Of a DNA stretch of 5,537 nucleotides, positions 1,205-5,537 are shown piece after piece. This stretch comes from a virus (Duplodnaviria; Heunggongvirae; Uroviricota; Caudoviricetes): IMG/VR virus record IMGVR_UViG_3300029686_000254; one strand, written 5' to 3'. The notes beneath the pieces were generated by a model. The model saw nothing but the letters and a program-made list of their open reading frames with translations, was not told the DNA's origin and did no database searches. Each line of letters starts with the position of its first letter. Positions within the stretch are counted from its first letter, which is position 1. Position numbers and translations under genes: made by a program.

Positions 1205-1804
1205 ATGCGTAAAGTTTGTGTAGCCATTTTGTCCGCAGCCATCTGTCTGGCCGTATCCGGTGCGCCTGCATGGGCGTCTGAGCAGCCGGCCACACTGAGC
1301 GCAGGGTATCTTCATGCCCGTACGAACGCTCCCGGCAGCGATAATCTGAACGGGATTAACGTGAAATACCGTTATGAGTTTACGGACACGCTGGGGCTGA
1401 TTACGTCATTCAGTTATGCCAACGCTGAAGATGAGCAAAAAACGCATTACAGCGATACCCGCTGGCATGAGGATTCCGTGCGTAACCGCTGGTTCAGTGT
1501 GATGGCGGGGCCGTCTGTGCGCGTGAATGAATGGTTCAGCGCGTATGCGATGGCGGGTATGGCTTACAGCCGTGTTTCGACGTTCTCCGGGGATTATCTC
1601 CGCGTAACTGACAACAAGGGGAAAACGCACGATGTGCTGACCGGAAGTGATGACGATCGCCACAGCAACACGTCTCTGGCGTGGGGAGCTAGCGTGCAGT
1701 TTAACCCGACCGAATCCGTGGCCATTGATATTGCTTATGAAGGCTCCGGCAGTGGCGACTGGCGCACTGACGGTTTCATCGTGGGTGTCGGTTATAAATT
1801 CTGA
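1205..1804 (+). CDS. lom: Lom, outer-membrane beta-barrel protein of the Ail/Lom/OmpX family, with signal peptide
   Basis: 199-aa ORF. The N-terminus MRKVCVAILSAAICLAVSGAPAWA is a typical signal peptide. The C-terminus DIAYEGSGSGDWRTDGFIVGVGYKF matches the lambda Lom C-terminus as I recall it and ends in the terminal aromatic residue typical of OMP barrels. Position immediately after J is as in lambda. Confidence 0.93.
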   Translation: MRKVCVAILSAAICLAVSGAPAWASEQPATLSAGYLHARTNAPGSDNLNGINVKYRYEFTDTLGLITSFSYANAEDEQKTHYSDTRWHEDSVRNRWFSVMAGPSVRVNEWFSAYAMAGMAYSRVSTFSGDYLRVTDNKGKTHDVLTGSDDDRHSNTSLAWGASVQFNPTESVAIDIAYEGSGSGDWRTDGFIVGVGYKF

Positions 1805-1830
1805 TTAGCCAGGTAACACAGTGTTATGAC

Positions 1831-1857
1831 AGCCCGCCGGTTCAGGCGGGCTTTTTT
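1831..1857 (+). terminator. Rho-independent terminator downstream of lom
   Basis: AGCCCGCC (1831-1838) pairs with GGCGGGCT (1845-1852) as a perfect 8-bp stem around the loop GGTTCA, followed by a T6 run (1852-1857). Confidence 0.8.
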
Positions 1858-1868
1858 GTGGAGTGGAT

Positions 1869-4241
1869 ATGGCAGCAGTAAAAATCTCAGGTGTGCTGAA
1901 AGATGGTGCGGGAAAACCAATACAGAACTGCACTATTCAACTGAAGGCAAAGCGTAACAGCACCACGGTACTGGTGAACACGGTGGCCTCTGAAAATCCT
2001 GATGAAGCCGGGCGTTACAGCATGGATGTTGAGTATGGCCAGTACAGCGTCACCCTGCTGGTTGAAGGTTTTCCGCCTTCACATGCCGGGACCATTACCG
2101 TCTATGAAGGTTCCAGACCAGGTACGCTGAATGATTTTCTTGGTGCCATGACGGAGGATGATGCCCGTCCGGAGGCACTGCGCCGTTTTGAACTGATGGT
2201 GGAAGAAGCAGCACGCAACGCTGAAGCCGCCTCTCAGAGCGCAGCGGCGGCAAAGAAATCCGAAACTGCAGCGGCATCATCGAAGAACGCGGCGAAAACC
2301 TCAGAAACGAATGCAGCTAACAGCGCACAGGCGGCAGCGACCTCACAGACTGCATCGGCAAACTCCGCGACAGCAGCCAAAAAATCAGAAACCAACGCGA
2401 AAAACAGCGAGACAGCCGCAAAGACGAGCGAAACCAACGCAAAGTCCAGCCAGACGGCAGCGAAGACCAGCGAAACGAATGCCAAAGCCAGTGAAACTGC
2501 GGCAAAAAACAGCCAGGTTGCAGCAGCCCAAAGCGAGAGCGCGGCAGCCGGTTCTGCGACTTCAGCAGCTGGATCAGCAACTGCTGCGGCTAACAGCCAG
2601 AAAGCTGCGAAGACGAGTGAAACTAACGCAAAGTCCAGCCAGACGGCAGCGAAGACCAGCGAAACGAATGCCAAAGCCAGCGAAACTGCGGCGAAAAACA
2701 GCCAGGATGCAGCAGCCCAAAGCGAGAGTGCCGCAGCTGGTTCTGCAAGTGCGGCGGCTTCTTCTGCCACTGCATCAGCCAACAGTCAAAAAGCAGCAAA
2801 AACCAGTGAAACCAATGCAAAGACAAGCGAGACTGCGGCGACTAACTCGGCGAAAGCATCCGCTGCAAGCCAGATGGCTGCAAAAGCAAGTGAAGACGCA
2901 GCCAGAGAGTATGCAAGCCAGGCAGCAGAGCCGTATAAATATGTCTTACAGCCACTGCCTGATGTGTGGATACCGTTTAATGACTCGATGGATATGATTA
3001 CAGGATTTGGCCCGGGATATAAAAAAATAACAGTGCGCGATGATGTGGTCACTATACCATCCGACAAAATTGTCCCGTTTTCCCGCGCGAGTTCCGCGAC
3101 CTATATCAATAAGTCCGGCGCTCTTACCATTGCAGAAATTAATGAGCCACGTTTTGAAAAAGAAGGGCTGTTAATTGAAGGGCAGAGAACTAACTATCTA
3201 AAAAATTCTAATACACCGGAATTGTGGTACTACCACAGTTTACTGGCGAAAGAGTATGGGGTTGATAATTACGGTTTTAATTATGCAACCGTCACCGTGA
3301 CAGACAGCCTTGTAGGCACAACCAGTAGTTATCAGATTCATAGTGTAACTGGAGAGAACAGGTTTTCTCTGTCCATCGGTGAAACCTGCACTTTTTCTGC
3401 CCGCTTTCGTGGAGTTAATTCACGTTGTCGCGTCCATATATCTCTTGTTATTGGCGAAAATGTTAAAACATCTGTTGATGTATGTCTGGAGCCAGATACA
3501 GGTGAGGTTAAGGCGTACGGTAATAAGGCGCTGGTGACATTCAGAACGGAAAAACAGGGGGACTGGTGTTACTTTGAAACAACATATACCGCCGCAGAGA
3601 ATATTGACGAAGTGGTATGCGGTTTTTTTATAACCAATCCTGAAGATGGTGGTTTTTCTTCTGATTCGTCATTAACAATGACTACGCCGCAAATTGAAAA
3701 AGGGTCATGCGCTTCATCGTTTATTATTTCCGGAAACACACCAACCACGCGCGCCAGTGATATGGTTATTTTTTCAACCAAAAATAACATAAGTTCTGTC
3801 CCTTTAAGCTGTCTTGTTGAAATACATAAAAATTGGGACTCTACGCCAAATCAGGCCCCACGAATTTTAACCACTATTGGCGTGGCGACTAATGATGAAC
3901 AACTGGTATTGGCTTTCAGGACGCCTACAAGTCCGGATGTAGAACCTTTACCTTATGTTCAGTTTGGAGTGAGATCTGCATATCTTAGTCCATCTGTGAA
4001 GGCCGGGCGCAAAATGATTGCTGGTTTTGTCTGTAATAGCTCGACTGAATTTCGTTGCTGTTGTAATGGTTACCTGTCACCTGTTCAGACTTCGTCATGG
4101 AAGAATACCGGAGCTGCACATGAAATACGTATTGGGGGAACTTCTGCTGGAGGAGAACGTCACTTGTTTGGTCACGTTCGTAACCTGAGAATATGGCATA
4201 AAGAATTAACTGATGCGCAAATGGGGGAGAGTATTAAATGA
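1869..4241 (+). CDS. stf: Side tail fibre protein (lambda Stf-like N-terminus, Ala/Ser/Thr-rich repetitive shaft, divergent C-terminal receptor-binding domain)
   Basis: Long ORF ending at TGA 4239-4241. The ORF track starts at GTG 1863, but ATG 1869 is preferred: it gives MAAVKISGVLKDG..., matching the lambda Stf N-terminus (MAVKISGVLKDG...), and GGAG at 1860-1863 sits 5 nt upstream. The first ~110 aa (…RYSMDVEYGQYSVTLLVEGFPPSHAGTITVYEGSRPGTLNDFLGAMTEDDARPEALRRFELMVEEAARNA) are lambda Stf-like. Residues ~120-350 are repetitive AAKTSETNAK-type sequence. The C-terminal ~430 aa are AT-rich and end ...ERHLFGHVRNLRIWHKELTDAQMGESIK, which resembles the end of a concanavalin-A-like/LamG-type jelly-roll domain. 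Confidence 0.9.
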   Translation: MAAVKISGVLKDGAGKPIQNCTIQLKAKRNSTTVLVNTVASENPDEAGRYSMDVEYGQYSVTLLVEGFPPSHAGTITVYEGSRPGTLNDFLGAMTEDDARPEALRRFELMVEEAARNAEAASQSAAAAKKSETAAASSKNAAKTSETNAANSAQAAATSQTASANSATAAKKSETNAKNSETAAKTSETNAKSSQTAAKTSETNAKASETAAKNSQVAAAQSESAAAGSATSAAGSATAAANSQKAAKTSETNAKSSQTAAKTSETNAKASETAAKNSQDAAAQSESAAAGSASAAASSATASANSQKAAKTSETNAKTSETAATNSAKASAASQMAAKASEDAAREYASQAAEPYKYVLQPLPDVWIPFNDSMDMITGFGPGYKKITVRDDVVTIPSDKIVPFSRASSATYINKSGALTIAEINEPRFEKEGLLIEGQRTNYLKNSNTPELWYYHSLLAKEYGVDNYGFNYATVTVTDSLVGTTSSYQIHSVTGENRFSLSIGETCTFSARFRGVNSRCRVHISLVIGENVKTSVDVCLEPDTGEVKAYGNKALVTFRTEKQGDWCYFETTYTAAENIDEVVCGFFITNPEDGGFSSDSSLTMTTPQIEKGSCASSFIISGNTPTTRASDMVIFSTKNNISSVPLSCLVEIHKNWDSTPNQAPRILTTIGVATNDEQLVLAFRTPTSPDVEPLPYVQFGVRSAYLSPSVKAGRKMIAGFVCNSSTEFRCCCNGYLSPVQTSSWKNTGAAHEIRIGGTSAGGERHLFGHVRNLRIWHKELTDAQMGESIK
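2215..2900 (+). repeat. GC-rich low-complexity coding region of stf made of degenerate 42-nt (14-aa) units of the form AAK(T/K/N)SETNAK(S/A/N)S(E/Q)T
   Basis: Repeated peptide units are visible in the translation: AAKKSETNAKNSET, AAKTSETNAKSSQT, AAKTSETNAKASET, AAKTSETNAKTSET. This region explains the spurious overlapping ORFs on both strands. Confidence 0.85.
2421..2798 (+). repeat. Tandem direct duplication, 2 x 189 nt (63 aa), in frame inside stf
   Basis: Copy 1 begins aagacgagcgaaaccaacgcaaagtccagccagacggcagcg... at 2421. Copy 2 begins aagacgagtgaaactaacgcaaagtccagccagacggcagcg... at 2610. The first ~97 nt differ at about 4 positions by eye; the rest of each unit is more diverged. A partial third unit follows at about 2799-2850. 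Confidence 0.85.
4223..4230 (+). promoter_or_regulatory. Shine-Dalgarno sequence for the 93-aa ORF, embedded in the 3' end of stf
   Basis: GGGGGAGA lies 7 nt upstream of ATG 4238. That ATG overlaps the stf stop codon (ATGA at 4238-4241). Confidence 0.55.
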
Positions 4242-4519
4242 AAGATTTAACACTCAAATTTGCAGACAGGGCCGACTTTTCGGCCTTTATGGATAGCACG
4301 GGCTATTATGATGACGAGTCGATGCAGGATGATATTCTTATTGACGTGATAGGTAACGTGTACAAAGAAACCGGAGAACTGACTGAAGATGGCGAACCGG
4401 TATGTGTTAAGGAAGACGGATATTTTGTAAACGTGCGCATCATTAATGATGCAAAAAAATCGTCAATATTCGATGAATACGCGGTTGTTGTTGAACATCA
4501 ACTTCGTGGCTGGATGTGA
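4238..4519 (+). CDS. Hypothetical small acidic protein (93 aa), translationally coupled to stf; possible tail-fibre accessory or chaperone, or anti-defence protein
   Basis: The start codon overlaps the stf stop (ATGA), with an SD-like GGGGGAGA upstream. By my count there are about 21 Asp+Glu against about 9 Lys+Arg, giving a net charge near -12. I recognise no family and it is not Tfa-like. Confidence 0.6.
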   Translation: MKDLTLKFADRADFSAFMDSTGYYDDESMQDDILIDVIGNVYKETGELTEDGEPVCVKEDGYFVNVRIINDAKKSSIFDEYAVVVEHQLRGWM

Positions 4520-4528
4520 GGCAGAAAA

Positions 4529-5233
4529 ATGGCTACATCGACAGTAATTCCTGGAGACATCACCACGCTGAAGGGAGATGTCAGTAAGGCAAAGGAAGAT
4601 ATTTCCTCAATTAACGGTAAAGTATCAACGCTTCAGACTGATATGACCAGTGCAAAGCAGGATATCAGCACCAGATACACAAAAACTGAAGTTGATAATA
4701 AGCTGAAAAACAAAGTGGAAGTGAACGATCTGGAAAGCGGTCGTTATGGCGGAGATTTTTATCCACTGACAGGTCGTGAAGCGTTTTATTTATGGGGATT
4801 GGGCACGACTACAGCGGCGGCAAACCTTTATCTTAATCCTGACCCTGCAATTTCGTCTGTACTGCGGTCAACATCGTCTATCCGCTATAAAGATTCAGTA
4901 GAGACGATAGATTCAGAGCACGCCGATCTCATTTTCAAGCTGCGCCCTGTATGGTACAGATCGCAATGCGAAAATGACAGGCGTGAATGGGGATTCTACG
5001 GATTGATTGCCGAGGAAGTAGGAGAAATTGCTCCTCAGTTTGTACACTGGCGACCAGCTAACGAAGATGATGCTCCTGAAGCTATTTCCAGCAATGGCCT
5101 TGTTGCCGAAGGTGTAATGTACGAACGTCTGGTTGTTCCACTTATTCACCATATCCAGAAACTGACTGAAAGAGTTGATGAACTTGAGTCAGAATTGAAG
5201 TTGTTATCAACTTCCCGAAGCGATATCGGATAA
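4529..5233 (+). CDS. Tail-fibre-like protein with N-terminal fibrous repeat region and C-terminal intramolecular chaperone / autoproteolytic domain (Peptidase S74-like)
   Basis: 234-aa ORF with GAGG 7 nt upstream of the ATG. Residues ~8-70 show roughly 11-residue repeats (GDVSKAKEDIS / SINGKVSTLQT / DMTSAKQDIST), consistent with a coiled-coil or fibre region. Residues 116-121 (SSIRYK) fit the S-D-x-R-x-K serine-lysine dyad motif of the endosialidase/T5 pb1-type chaperone domain. The downstream sequence (LIFKLRPVWYR ... WGFYGLIAEEVGEIAPQFV ... YERLVVPLIHHIQKLTERVDELESELKLL) follows that domain's pattern, including the terminal helix. Confidence 0.8.
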   Translation: MATSTVIPGDITTLKGDVSKAKEDISSINGKVSTLQTDMTSAKQDISTRYTKTEVDNKLKNKVEVNDLESGRYGGDFYPLTGREAFYLWGLGTTTAAANLYLNPDPAISSVLRSTSSIRYKDSVETIDSEHADLIFKLRPVWYRSQCENDRREWGFYGLIAEEVGEIAPQFVHWRPANEDDAPEAISSNGLVAEGVMYERLVVPLIHHIQKLTERVDELESELKLLSTSRSDIG

Positions 5234-5239
5234 AGGAGG
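5234..5239 (+). promoter_or_regulatory. Shine-Dalgarno sequence for the 97-aa membrane protein ORF
   Basis: A perfect AGGAGG lies 4 nt upstream of ATG 5244. Confidence 0.65.
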
Positions 5240-5243
5240 AGTA

Positions 5244-5537
5244 ATGGATATAACACCTTTTCTTCATGCGCTTTGTGCTGTGGCTGCGCAGGTACTGATT
5301 GGTCTTTTTACCGGAAACTGGGTTTACGGGGCGATAGCCGGTTGTACGTTCTTCATTGCGCGTGAACACACCCAGGCAGAATATCGCTGGATTGAAATGT
5401 TCGGGCATGGCAAGCGAATGAATATGCCGTGGTGGGGCGGTTTTGATCCGCGCGCGTGGGATGTGGCAAGCCTGATGGATTTTGCTGTGCCGGTGGTGGC
5501 GTGTCTGCTGGTCTGGCTGTTGGTTAATCGTGGGTGA
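5244..5537 (+). CDS. Hypothetical small membrane protein (97 aa, two predicted transmembrane helices)
   Basis: Strong SD (AGGAGG) and a complete ORF ending at TGA 5535-5537. Hydrophobic segments FLHALCAVAAQVLIGLFTGNWVYGAIAGCTFFIA and ASLMDFAVPVVACLLVWLLV are separated by a charged, Trp-rich loop (EYRWIEMFGHGKRMNMPWWGGFDPRAWD). GC content is higher than in the two upstream ORFs. Family not recognised. Confidence 0.65.
   Translation: MDITPFLHALCAVAAQVLIGLFTGNWVYGAIAGCTFFIAREHTQAEYRWIEMFGHGKRMNMPWWGGFDPRAWDVASLMDFAVPVVACLLVWLLVNRG

Follow-up and report, generated by a model that had tools for sequence, protein, structure and literature searches.

A short protein with an S74-type chaperone domain as the probable smallest allele of an exchangeable third gene in side-fibre cassettes of lambdoid and other phages

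Background

What role can an S74-type intramolecular chaperone (IMC) domain play when only 115 residues precede its predicted cleavage site? The question is raised by an open reading frame (ORF) for 234 residues, here called the S74 ORF, near the right end of a stretch of 5,537 nucleotides from the IMG/VR record IMGVR_UViG_3300029686_000254 (Caudoviricetes). This whole stretch, referred to below as the window, represents the tail end of a lambdoid phage or prophage, and its nearest nucleotide match is an E. coli chromosome (99.9% identity). An initial annotation, made from the DNA alone, had described the product as a stand-alone mini-fibre that could be a novel short accessory fibre or decoy co-assembling on the virion, and had named as the alternative an orphaned 3' remnant of an earlier fibre gene. 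On comparison with related loci, the ORF is found to belong to a cassette of three genes, and it is probably the smallest allele of the exchangeable third gene of that cassette. The evidence for this placement, the explanations that compete with it and a possible assembly pathway are presented here; the coordinates of all features are collected in Table 1.

Results and discussion

A third gene in a conserved side-fibre cassette

The cassette consists of a fibre gene, a gene for a protein of ~89-93 residues and an S74 gene that starts ~10 nt later. This order is seen in lambdoid phages (the window, PhiR49_1, PhiR47_1, PhiR55_1 and HannyBb), in Drexlerviridae (KarlJaspers, swan01 and dozens more), in Nonagvirus (ESCO3 and JenP2), in Seuratvirus (KurtStettler) and in Tequintavirus (HMD-P4, IrisVonRoten and mar004NP2). 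With synteny across these five phage groups, a gap of 9 nt between the stop of the 93-aa middle gene and the S74 ATG, and a LamG/galectin-like fibre upstream, the S74 ORF of the window is the third gene of a tightly packed unit and can no longer be described as stand-alone. The unit is common in E. coli: of 5,426 complete genomes, 723 (about 13%) carry at least 80% of the window interval 4200-5537.

Products of the third gene vary from 221 to 589 residues. All 13 that were examined, including Gp24 of IrisVonRoten, begin with M[AV]TxTxIPxDIxxLK, and each of the 13 homologous genes has a Shine-Dalgarno-like GGAG or AAGG at the same place. In the window this N-terminal adaptor is MATSTVIPGDITTLK. 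For bas06_0035 of KarlJaspers (L002 4989-5001) the annotated start is a GTG, giving VGLIMATVT…; this start is probably placed four codons too early, the family-wide ATG giving MATVT….

Behind the adaptor the bodies of the third gene are exchanged independently of fibre and middle gene. When the window is compared with cassettes of the HannyBb/Tritos type, nucleotide homology extends from the fibre end through the 93-aa gene into the S74 ORF, where it breaks after ~40 nt, and it resumes exactly at the S74 stop. Short S74 bodies with at least 95% mutual identity are combined with five fibre ends, which agree in only 31-50% of residues, and with two types of middle protein, which agree in 33-35%. 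The reverse situation is also found. PhiR47_1 and PhiR55_1 have fibre ends that are 98% and middle proteins that are 97% identical, whereas their S74 bodies (294 vs 227 aa) agree in only 13% of residues, and swan01 and KurtStettler, with fibre ends 86% identical, carry third genes for 224 and 510 residues respectively.

The long end of this series is represented by IrisVonRoten (Bas32, Tequintavirus), in which Gp22, Gp23 and Gp24 follow each other in the same order as in the window. The C-terminal module of the fibre is 46% and the middle protein Gp23 37% identical to the window counterparts, the third gene starts 10 nt after the middle gene, its N-terminal peptide reads MVTKTVIPTDITKLK where the window has MATSTVIPGDITTLK, and its product likewise ends in an S74 IMC. 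Gp24, however, has 574 residues with two receptor-binding domains (RBDs), whereas the 234-residue window protein has a coiled coil and a tip of 55 residues, and outside the adaptor and the IMC fold the two bodies are unrelated. AlphaFold-Multimer modelling (Humolli et al. 2025, PMC11990801) gives Gp24 the form of a T-shaped distal fibre that carries two RBDs and ends in an IMC; in this model it is joined to the proximal fibre Gp22, from whose C-terminal end a galectin-like domain protrudes. Because Gp22 and Gp23 resemble the fibre module and the 93-aa protein of the window, the S74 ORF can be placed at the short end of the same allelic series. The fibre C-terminal module could be aligned across the five phage groups, while the N-terminal anchors of the cassette fibres differ and each matches its own phage type. 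An IMC of their own is lacking in all of the cassette fibres, and the window fibre also has no Tfa. The side fibre is presumed to be the proximal fibre on which the S74 protein docks.

In phage 21 and the Lambda_ev phages the fibre module (45%), the middle gene (54%) and the membrane ORF that follows the cassette (95%) match those of the window, and there is no S74 gene. Such two-gene cassettes, in which the fibre and a 92-aa protein are followed directly by the membrane ORF (phage 21, L016 1444-4085, and records of the Lambda_ev/Lambda_2E9 type), are natural controls, already at hand, for what the third gene does.

Among the alternatives offered by the initial annotation, a short accessory fibre that co-assembles on the virion is the one that best fits these comparisons, although the word novel has to be given up. 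The family has been annotated by PGAP and by the BASEL curators, falls in phrog_3299, and has long alleles that are modelled as distal fibres (PMC11990801). Its existing names are in conflict, as hypothetical protein, tail fiber domain-containing protein (the PGAP label in E. coli genomes), chaperone of endosialidase and lateral tail fiber chaperone are all in use. Short S74 proteins form a recurring minority, with about 10 among the best 150 representatives having ≤~135 residues before the IMC, some of which are possibly truncated. A literature search for the function of short S74 proteins or for this lambdoid cassette returned nothing specific, and the Eligo preprint on lambda-Stf engineering does not mention the cassette.

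Architecture of the S74 protein

In a Pfam profile search, residues 116-172 were aligned with positions 1-57 of the 58-position Peptidase_S74 profile (PF13884) at 28.0 bits (E 2.8e-6), above the gathering cut-off of 22. The S-x4-K motif, S116-S-I-R-Y-K121, lies at the N-terminal edge of the domain, and neither Ser116 nor Lys121 varies among 35 aligned homologues. The AlphaFold2 (AF2) monomer model has pLDDT values of 72-91 over residues ~125-233 and ends in a long helix (202-233). A Foldseek search with this model detected the ICA domain of MyRF (7DC3; E 7e-5, probability 1.0), followed by weaker matches (E 0.15-0.5) to the T5 fibre tip with its IMC (4UW8), GA-1 gp12 (3GUD) and endoNF (3GW6), and the best sequence match in the PDB is the IMC end of DT57C LtfA (8HQZ_d, residues 952-1069). 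As judged from profile, alignment and model, the domain is an S74-type intramolecular chaperone with a predicted Ser116/Lys121 dyad.

The initial annotation had predicted this domain and dyad and had proposed the profile search, and several of its finer points are also borne out. Its codon for Ser116 is correct, as is the assignment of Lys121. The ORF has its own ATG and its own Shine-Dalgarno (SD) sequence, GAGG, placed 7 nt ahead of the ATG and overlapping the TGA stop of the 93-aa ORF. Cleavage before Ser116 would yield, by computation, an N-terminal product of 12.4 kDa, in agreement with the ~12 kDa that had been expected, and a C-terminal fragment of 13.7 kDa. The part ahead of the cleavage site is, at 115 residues, unusually short, as had been remarked, and the chaperone domain makes up over half of the 234-aa protein.

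The description of this N-terminal part needs revision. It had been read as ~115 residues of hendecad repeat, whereas the repeat covers only about residues 11-60 and is built of heptads (ITTLKGD VSKAKED ISSINGK VSTLQTD MTSAKQD ISTRYTK). A hendecad register was rejected, since hydrophobic residues recur more strongly with a period of 3.5 than of 3.67 residues and the insertions and deletions within the coiled coil across the short family are of 7, 14 and 21 residues. AF2 places helices at 11-47 and 52-60, and the coiled coil has a weak match to that of the P22 gp26 needle (4LIN). The remaining residues, 61-115, form a conserved, non-repetitive tip ending in GDFYPLTGREAFYLWGLGTTTAAANLYLNPDPAISSVLRSTS.

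Conservation differs along the chain. The adaptor (residues 1-15) is the best-conserved region of the short family, with 73-100% identity to the window. In distant members identity is 65-78% for the IMC core (116-200), 55-71% for the tip, where lambdoid are compared with T1-like short forms, and only 35-49% for the coiled coil (16-60). The tip is thus conserved and not hypervariable across phages that differ in host and in fibre type; with the tips of long fibres it has only 25-45% identity.

Origin of the module

The short length of the protein invites the explanation that the ORF is the orphaned 3' remnant of a former large fibre gene, non-functional or decaying, left behind by module exchange. 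Homology of the kind that this explanation implies does exist. In an exhaustive search of 1.84 billion representatives, the region from residues ~25-49 to residue 234 matched the C-terminal ends of fibres of 539-1243 aa at 52-59% identity, including lambdoid Stfs with a phage_tail_N domain (P0181 and P0182). The last 34 residues (201-234; window 5129-5230) are even 95-100% identical to the C-termini of P0182 and P0183, the match to phrog_3299 sits at the end of that profile (positions 1147-1384 of 1385), and a truncated tfa downstream in relatives demonstrates that real remnants occur at this locus.

Against a remnant stand the independent SD and ATG, and the finding that relatives at 90% identity or more are all separate ORFs of 223-234 aa, in clusters of 2,928 and 650 members. 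Both halves of the protein are also under purifying selection. In pairwise NG86 comparisons of eight lambdoid copies, the ratio of nonsynonymous to synonymous substitution rates (dN/dS) lies at 0.08-0.29 for the whole protein, and the separate values are 0.02-0.36 (residues 1-115) and 0-0.28 (IMC); relative to T1-like copies dS is saturated and dN is about 0.3. Moreover, the large fibres lack the adaptor and coiled coil, which are common to other alleles of the third gene, the short architecture is kept in lytic Drexlerviridae at 55-61% identity, and the ORF is intact in prophages in which the main fibre gene is broken. The overall dN/dS of 0.08-0.29 in particular leads us to reject the remnant explanation, which we regard as very improbable. 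What survives of this alternative in the initial annotation is the homology to the 3' ends of full-length fibres, at 52-59% identity; in close relatives the ORF is not the 3' end of a larger gene, and a recent leftover is contradicted by selection and by the separate ORFs.

The identity to long fibres is mosaic, with 26-45% over residues 41-140, 65-75% over 141-200 and 95-100% over 201-234, and has a sharp junction inside the chaperone domain. As read from these comparisons, the 3'-end homology reflects an ancient origin of the module together with a shared recombination arm, and not a recent leftover. Because the profile is mosaic in this manner, the 3' end of the IMC and the membrane ORF next to it are taken to act as a shared right-hand arm for recombination of alternative fibre cassettes at this locus. 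Being the smallest version of a swappable cassette gene, the S74 ORF is therefore largely ordinary and not a leftover fragment.

Fibre component or dedicated chaperone

Several observations weigh against the placement of the product as a small fibre. Searches of Pfam, NCBIfam and PHROG turned up no RBD signature in the interval from adaptor to IMC; that interval comprises the coiled coil and the conserved tip only, and confidence of the monomer model is low there. The model is poor over residues 59-122, with only the IMC and its helix being credible, and the AF2 model of the 93-aa protein, built on a shallow alignment, has a pLDDT of 41.7, too low for use. The sole virion proteome of a carrier phage that was found, that of swan01 (PMC6563131 Table S5a), reports five abundant proteins, among which there is neither the main fibre nor the S74 product, and is too shallow for more to be read from it. 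Finally, the label chosen by the BASEL curators for the short form is putative lateral tail fiber chaperone.

This last label, given in KarlJaspers, PeterMerian, KurtStettler and HMD-P4, corresponds to an alternative role in which the protein would act in trans, helping the IMC-less main fibre to trimerise and then being discarded without entering the virion. Such a role would suit an upstream fibre gene that has neither an IMC nor a Tfa of its own, a protein of which over half is chaperone domain, and a remainder in which no RBD can be recognised. Searches of Pfam, NCBIfam and PHROGs, however, gave no match to a trans-chaperone family of the Tfa, gp38 or gpU type; apart from unannotated families and two labelled head and packaging, the PHROG matches are to tail fiber protein families. 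Nor does the gene show obligate co-variation with the distal domain of a client fibre, for the S74 body is shuffled independently of the distal 300 residues of the fibre and of the middle gene, and phage 21 and many lambda-like phages keep the fibre type in cassettes from which the S74 gene is absent. Long alleles with the common adaptor carry large RBD-like inserts, one of them being modelled as a fibre, and the N-terminal 115 residues are under purifying selection. The invariant self-cleavage dyad would be needed for freeing an N-terminal product but not for a chaperone that works in trans. A dedicated trans-chaperone role is considered unlikely.

A possible assembly pathway

For the small distal fibre that we prefer, the following pathway can be proposed, although cleavage, trimerisation, incorporation into the virion, docking and any binding of a receptor are all deduced from comparison. 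The S74 gene would be co-transcribed with the fibre gene and the 93-aa gene, for which the tight packing without a terminator is the indication. The C-terminal S74 domain would, as may be expected from its family, bring three chains into register, and this registration could nucleate the folding of the tip (61-115) and of the heptad coiled coil (~11-60). Given their invariance, Ser116 and Lys121 would then cut the bond between residues 115 and 116 and free the 13.7-kDa chaperone, while the 12.4-kDa N-terminal products would stay together as a trimer. The adaptor may plug this trimer onto the C-terminal module of the side fibre, possibly together with the 93-aa protein, so that a two-part or branched fibre would result; this docking step draws on comparative genomics and on the published model of IrisVonRoten Gp24. 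In long alleles an RBD would lie between adaptor and chaperone, the corresponding place here being taken by the coiled coil and the 55-residue conserved tip, and the tip might either bind a conserved surface structure or merely cap the docking site.

The second of these options deserves separate consideration. In phages that deploy no second receptor-binding branch, the stub could be a cap or placeholder that binds no receptor and occupies or stabilises the docking site, or modulates the conformation of the fibre. A tip of only 55 residues between the coiled coil and the cleavage site, without any RBD signature, would be in keeping with this, as would its conservation, which differs from the behaviour of O-antigen-specific RBDs, and the combination of the short allele with many fibre ends. 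A conserved tip is, however, equally compatible with a conserved receptor such as the lipopolysaccharide core, and since the cassettes of the phage 21 type have no third gene, a cap is not structurally required. We hold the cap to be rather doubtful.

Going further, one may speculate, at comparably low confidence, that the mature product is a minimal portable fibre module with the smallest known tip for a conserved E. coli surface, or else a cap or regulator of the docking site, and that the adaptor is a plug-and-play socket for receptor-binding proteins. The parts of such a module may be a docking peptide of 15 residues, a heptad coiled coil of adjustable length, a tip of 55 residues and a disposable chaperone. 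Its docking site may be common to lambdoid, T1-like, 9g-like and T5-like phages, which may permit exchange across unrelated siphophages.

Comparison with known fibre systems

PhiR49_1 has a copy of the S74 ORF that is 95.7% identical. Counterparts are also found in Drexlerviridae. KarlJaspers bas06_0035 and its equivalents in PeterMerian and SECphi27/JK16 (named chaperone of endosialidase) are true orthologues with 55-61% identity over the full length, and share architecture, position and dyad with the window protein. They differ in a coiled coil that is 14 residues shorter, in their occurrence in lytic T1-like genomes and in the N-terminal anchor of the accompanying fibre.

Among lambdoid phages, the Stfs P0181 (735 aa) and P0182 (958 aa) are 56-59% identical to the window protein over residues ~37-234, covering tip and IMC, and occupy the same genomic slot between lom and the membrane ORF. 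In these proteins the IMC stands in cis at the end of the main fibre, whereas the window encodes it separately, in a small gene that brings its own adaptor; the main fibre of the window, unlike P0181 and P0182, ends in a LamG-like module instead of an IMC.

Likeness at the level of the PF13884 family is seen with K1F endoNF (3GW6), T5 pb1 (4UW8), GA-1 gp12 (3GUD) and the MyRF ICA domain (7DC3), which likewise have the S-x4-K dyad where the domain begins and a fold with a long C-terminal helix. In these cases, however, large triple-beta-helix or tailspike regions precede the terminal domain, and the proteins have from several hundred to more than 1,000 residues, where the window protein has 115 residues before the cleavage site.

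Lateral fibres of small siphoviruses may comprise two or more proteins (PMC8594841), and branched lateral fibres are described for DT57C and DT571/2 (LtfA and LtfB) and for phiEco32 (gp14 and gp15) (Golomidova et al. 2016, PMC4728585; PMC10713586). There, as proposed here, a second, IMC-bearing fibre joins the first fibre and not the tail, by way of a short conserved N-terminus. In DT57C, however, LtfA bears an IMC too, and a middle gene of ~92 aa is not described. In a tblastn search with the adaptor-bearing N-terminus, DT57C was matched only through an internal LtfA motif (query residues 27-48). LtfB was rejected as a homologue of the docking end, as the adaptor is not in common; the likeness of DT57C LtfB and phiEco32 gp15 to the window protein is one of functional analogy, not of membership in the family.

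Significance

The S74 domain family, lateral fibres made of several proteins and distal fibres that bear an IMC are already known, and the current understanding of phage fibres is not overturned by this locus. Two points are suggested by the comparisons as new: the short form can be understood as the minimal allele of a third gene that is exchanged across phage families with a universal adaptor of 15 residues, and there is evidence against the remnant and dedicated-chaperone explanations. For annotation, a common E. coli prophage gene can in this manner be placed by comparative evidence as the minimal allele of an exchangeable distal-fibre gene. If the adaptor truly docks, it would provide a ready handle by which receptor-binding modules could be grafted onto lambda-, T1-, 9g- and T5-like phages, and the short allele would be the smallest available system for IMC-driven folding of fibres.

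The side fibre, the middle gene and the flanks

Table 1. Positions of the genes and protein features in the window, with the downstream pseudogene given in its own records
Feature	Position	Strand	Basis or remark
Lom	1205-1804		
Side tail fibre gene, Stf-like, 792 aa	1863-4241	+	
Middle gene, 93 aa	4238-4519	+	phrog_1361 match over full length
Shine-Dalgarno GAGG for S74 ORF	4518-4521	+	Read directly from sequence
S74/IMC mini-fibre gene (putative), 234 aa	4529-5233	+	ATG at 4529; stop codon TAA 5231-5233
N-terminal adaptor peptide, residues 1-15 (MATSTVIPGDITTLK)	4529-4573	+	Presumed docking element
Heptad-repeat coiled coil, about residues 11-60	4559-4708	+	
Tip segment, residues 61-115 (…GDFYPLTGREAFYLWGLGTTTAAANLYLNPDPAISSVLRSTS)	4709-4873	+	Last part before predicted cleavage site
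Intramolecular chaperone (S74/ICA) domain, residues 116-234	4874-5230	+	Pfam, AF2, Foldseek
Ser116 codon TCG, predicted nucleophile; scissile bond 115/116	4874-4876	+	Pfam profile position 1
Lys121 codon AAA, predicted general base of Ser-Lys dyad	4889-4891	+	Homologue alignment
Downstream membrane ORF, 97 aa	5244-5537	+	phrog_1443 match
Truncated tfa pseudogene, beyond the right end of the window	L011 4358-4477; L012 4352-4471; L013 4358-4468; L014 4353-4463; L015 4967-5077		Related prophages

The side fibre of the window has a lambdoid phage_tail_N anchor (Pfam, 225 bits), a shaft of Ala/Ser-rich repeats and a C-terminal module of ~430 residues; the NCBIfam family GTA_spike_fiber is matched over residues 437-631. 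The C-terminal module, common to the cassette fibres, starts with QPLPDVWIPFNDS and ends in a LamG-like RHLFGHxRNxRIWHKxLTD, the LamG/galectin-like end motif in the window being RIWHKELTDAQ. Within this module Laminin_G_3 (20.8 bits) and CBM_4_9 are both detected below threshold. The module is 45-46% identical to the side fibre of phage 21 (45%) and to IrisVonRoten Gp22 (46%). PGAP reports the fibre gene as split or pseudogenised, within the region of the repeat shaft, in the related E. coli prophages L012, L013 and L015, where the S74 ORF is intact.

The middle gene overlaps the fibre stop by 4 nt (ATGA). Its product is 33-97% identical across the cassettes examined and has homologues in 181 phage records, among them those of T5-like siphophages and of Vequintavirinae myophages, and neither Pfam nor NCBIfam has a family for it. 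The gene is kept in phage 21, which is without an S74 gene.

A single hairpin resembling an intrinsic terminator is present in the interval 1700-5537. It lies between lom and the fibre gene (1831-1852) and has a stem of 8 bp, with 7 GC pairs, followed by a T-run; no terminator-like site was found across 1863-5537, which holds the fibre gene and the three further ORFs.

The membrane ORF starts 10 nt past the S74 stop, with AGGAGG as its SD, and is 95% identical to CPT_21_24 of phage 21, a putative membrane protein with two transmembrane domains. It is kept at 95-97% nucleotide identity in many lambda-like phages, whichever fibre cassette precedes it, and also in lambda-like phages without the S74 gene. 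It appears to be the fixed right flank for exchange of the cassette. Directly after it, related prophages have a pseudogene annotated as a tail fiber assembly protein with missing N-terminus, and in this truncated tfa an older stf-tfa module of the locus has left a true orphan.

In the repeat shaft of the fibre gene (window 1863-4241, especially ~2200-3000) the peptide block KTSETNAKSSQTAAKTSETNAKASETAAKNSQ.AAAQSESAAAGSA is present twice. The many antisense and alternate-frame ORFs at 2234-3067 are by-products of the repeat.

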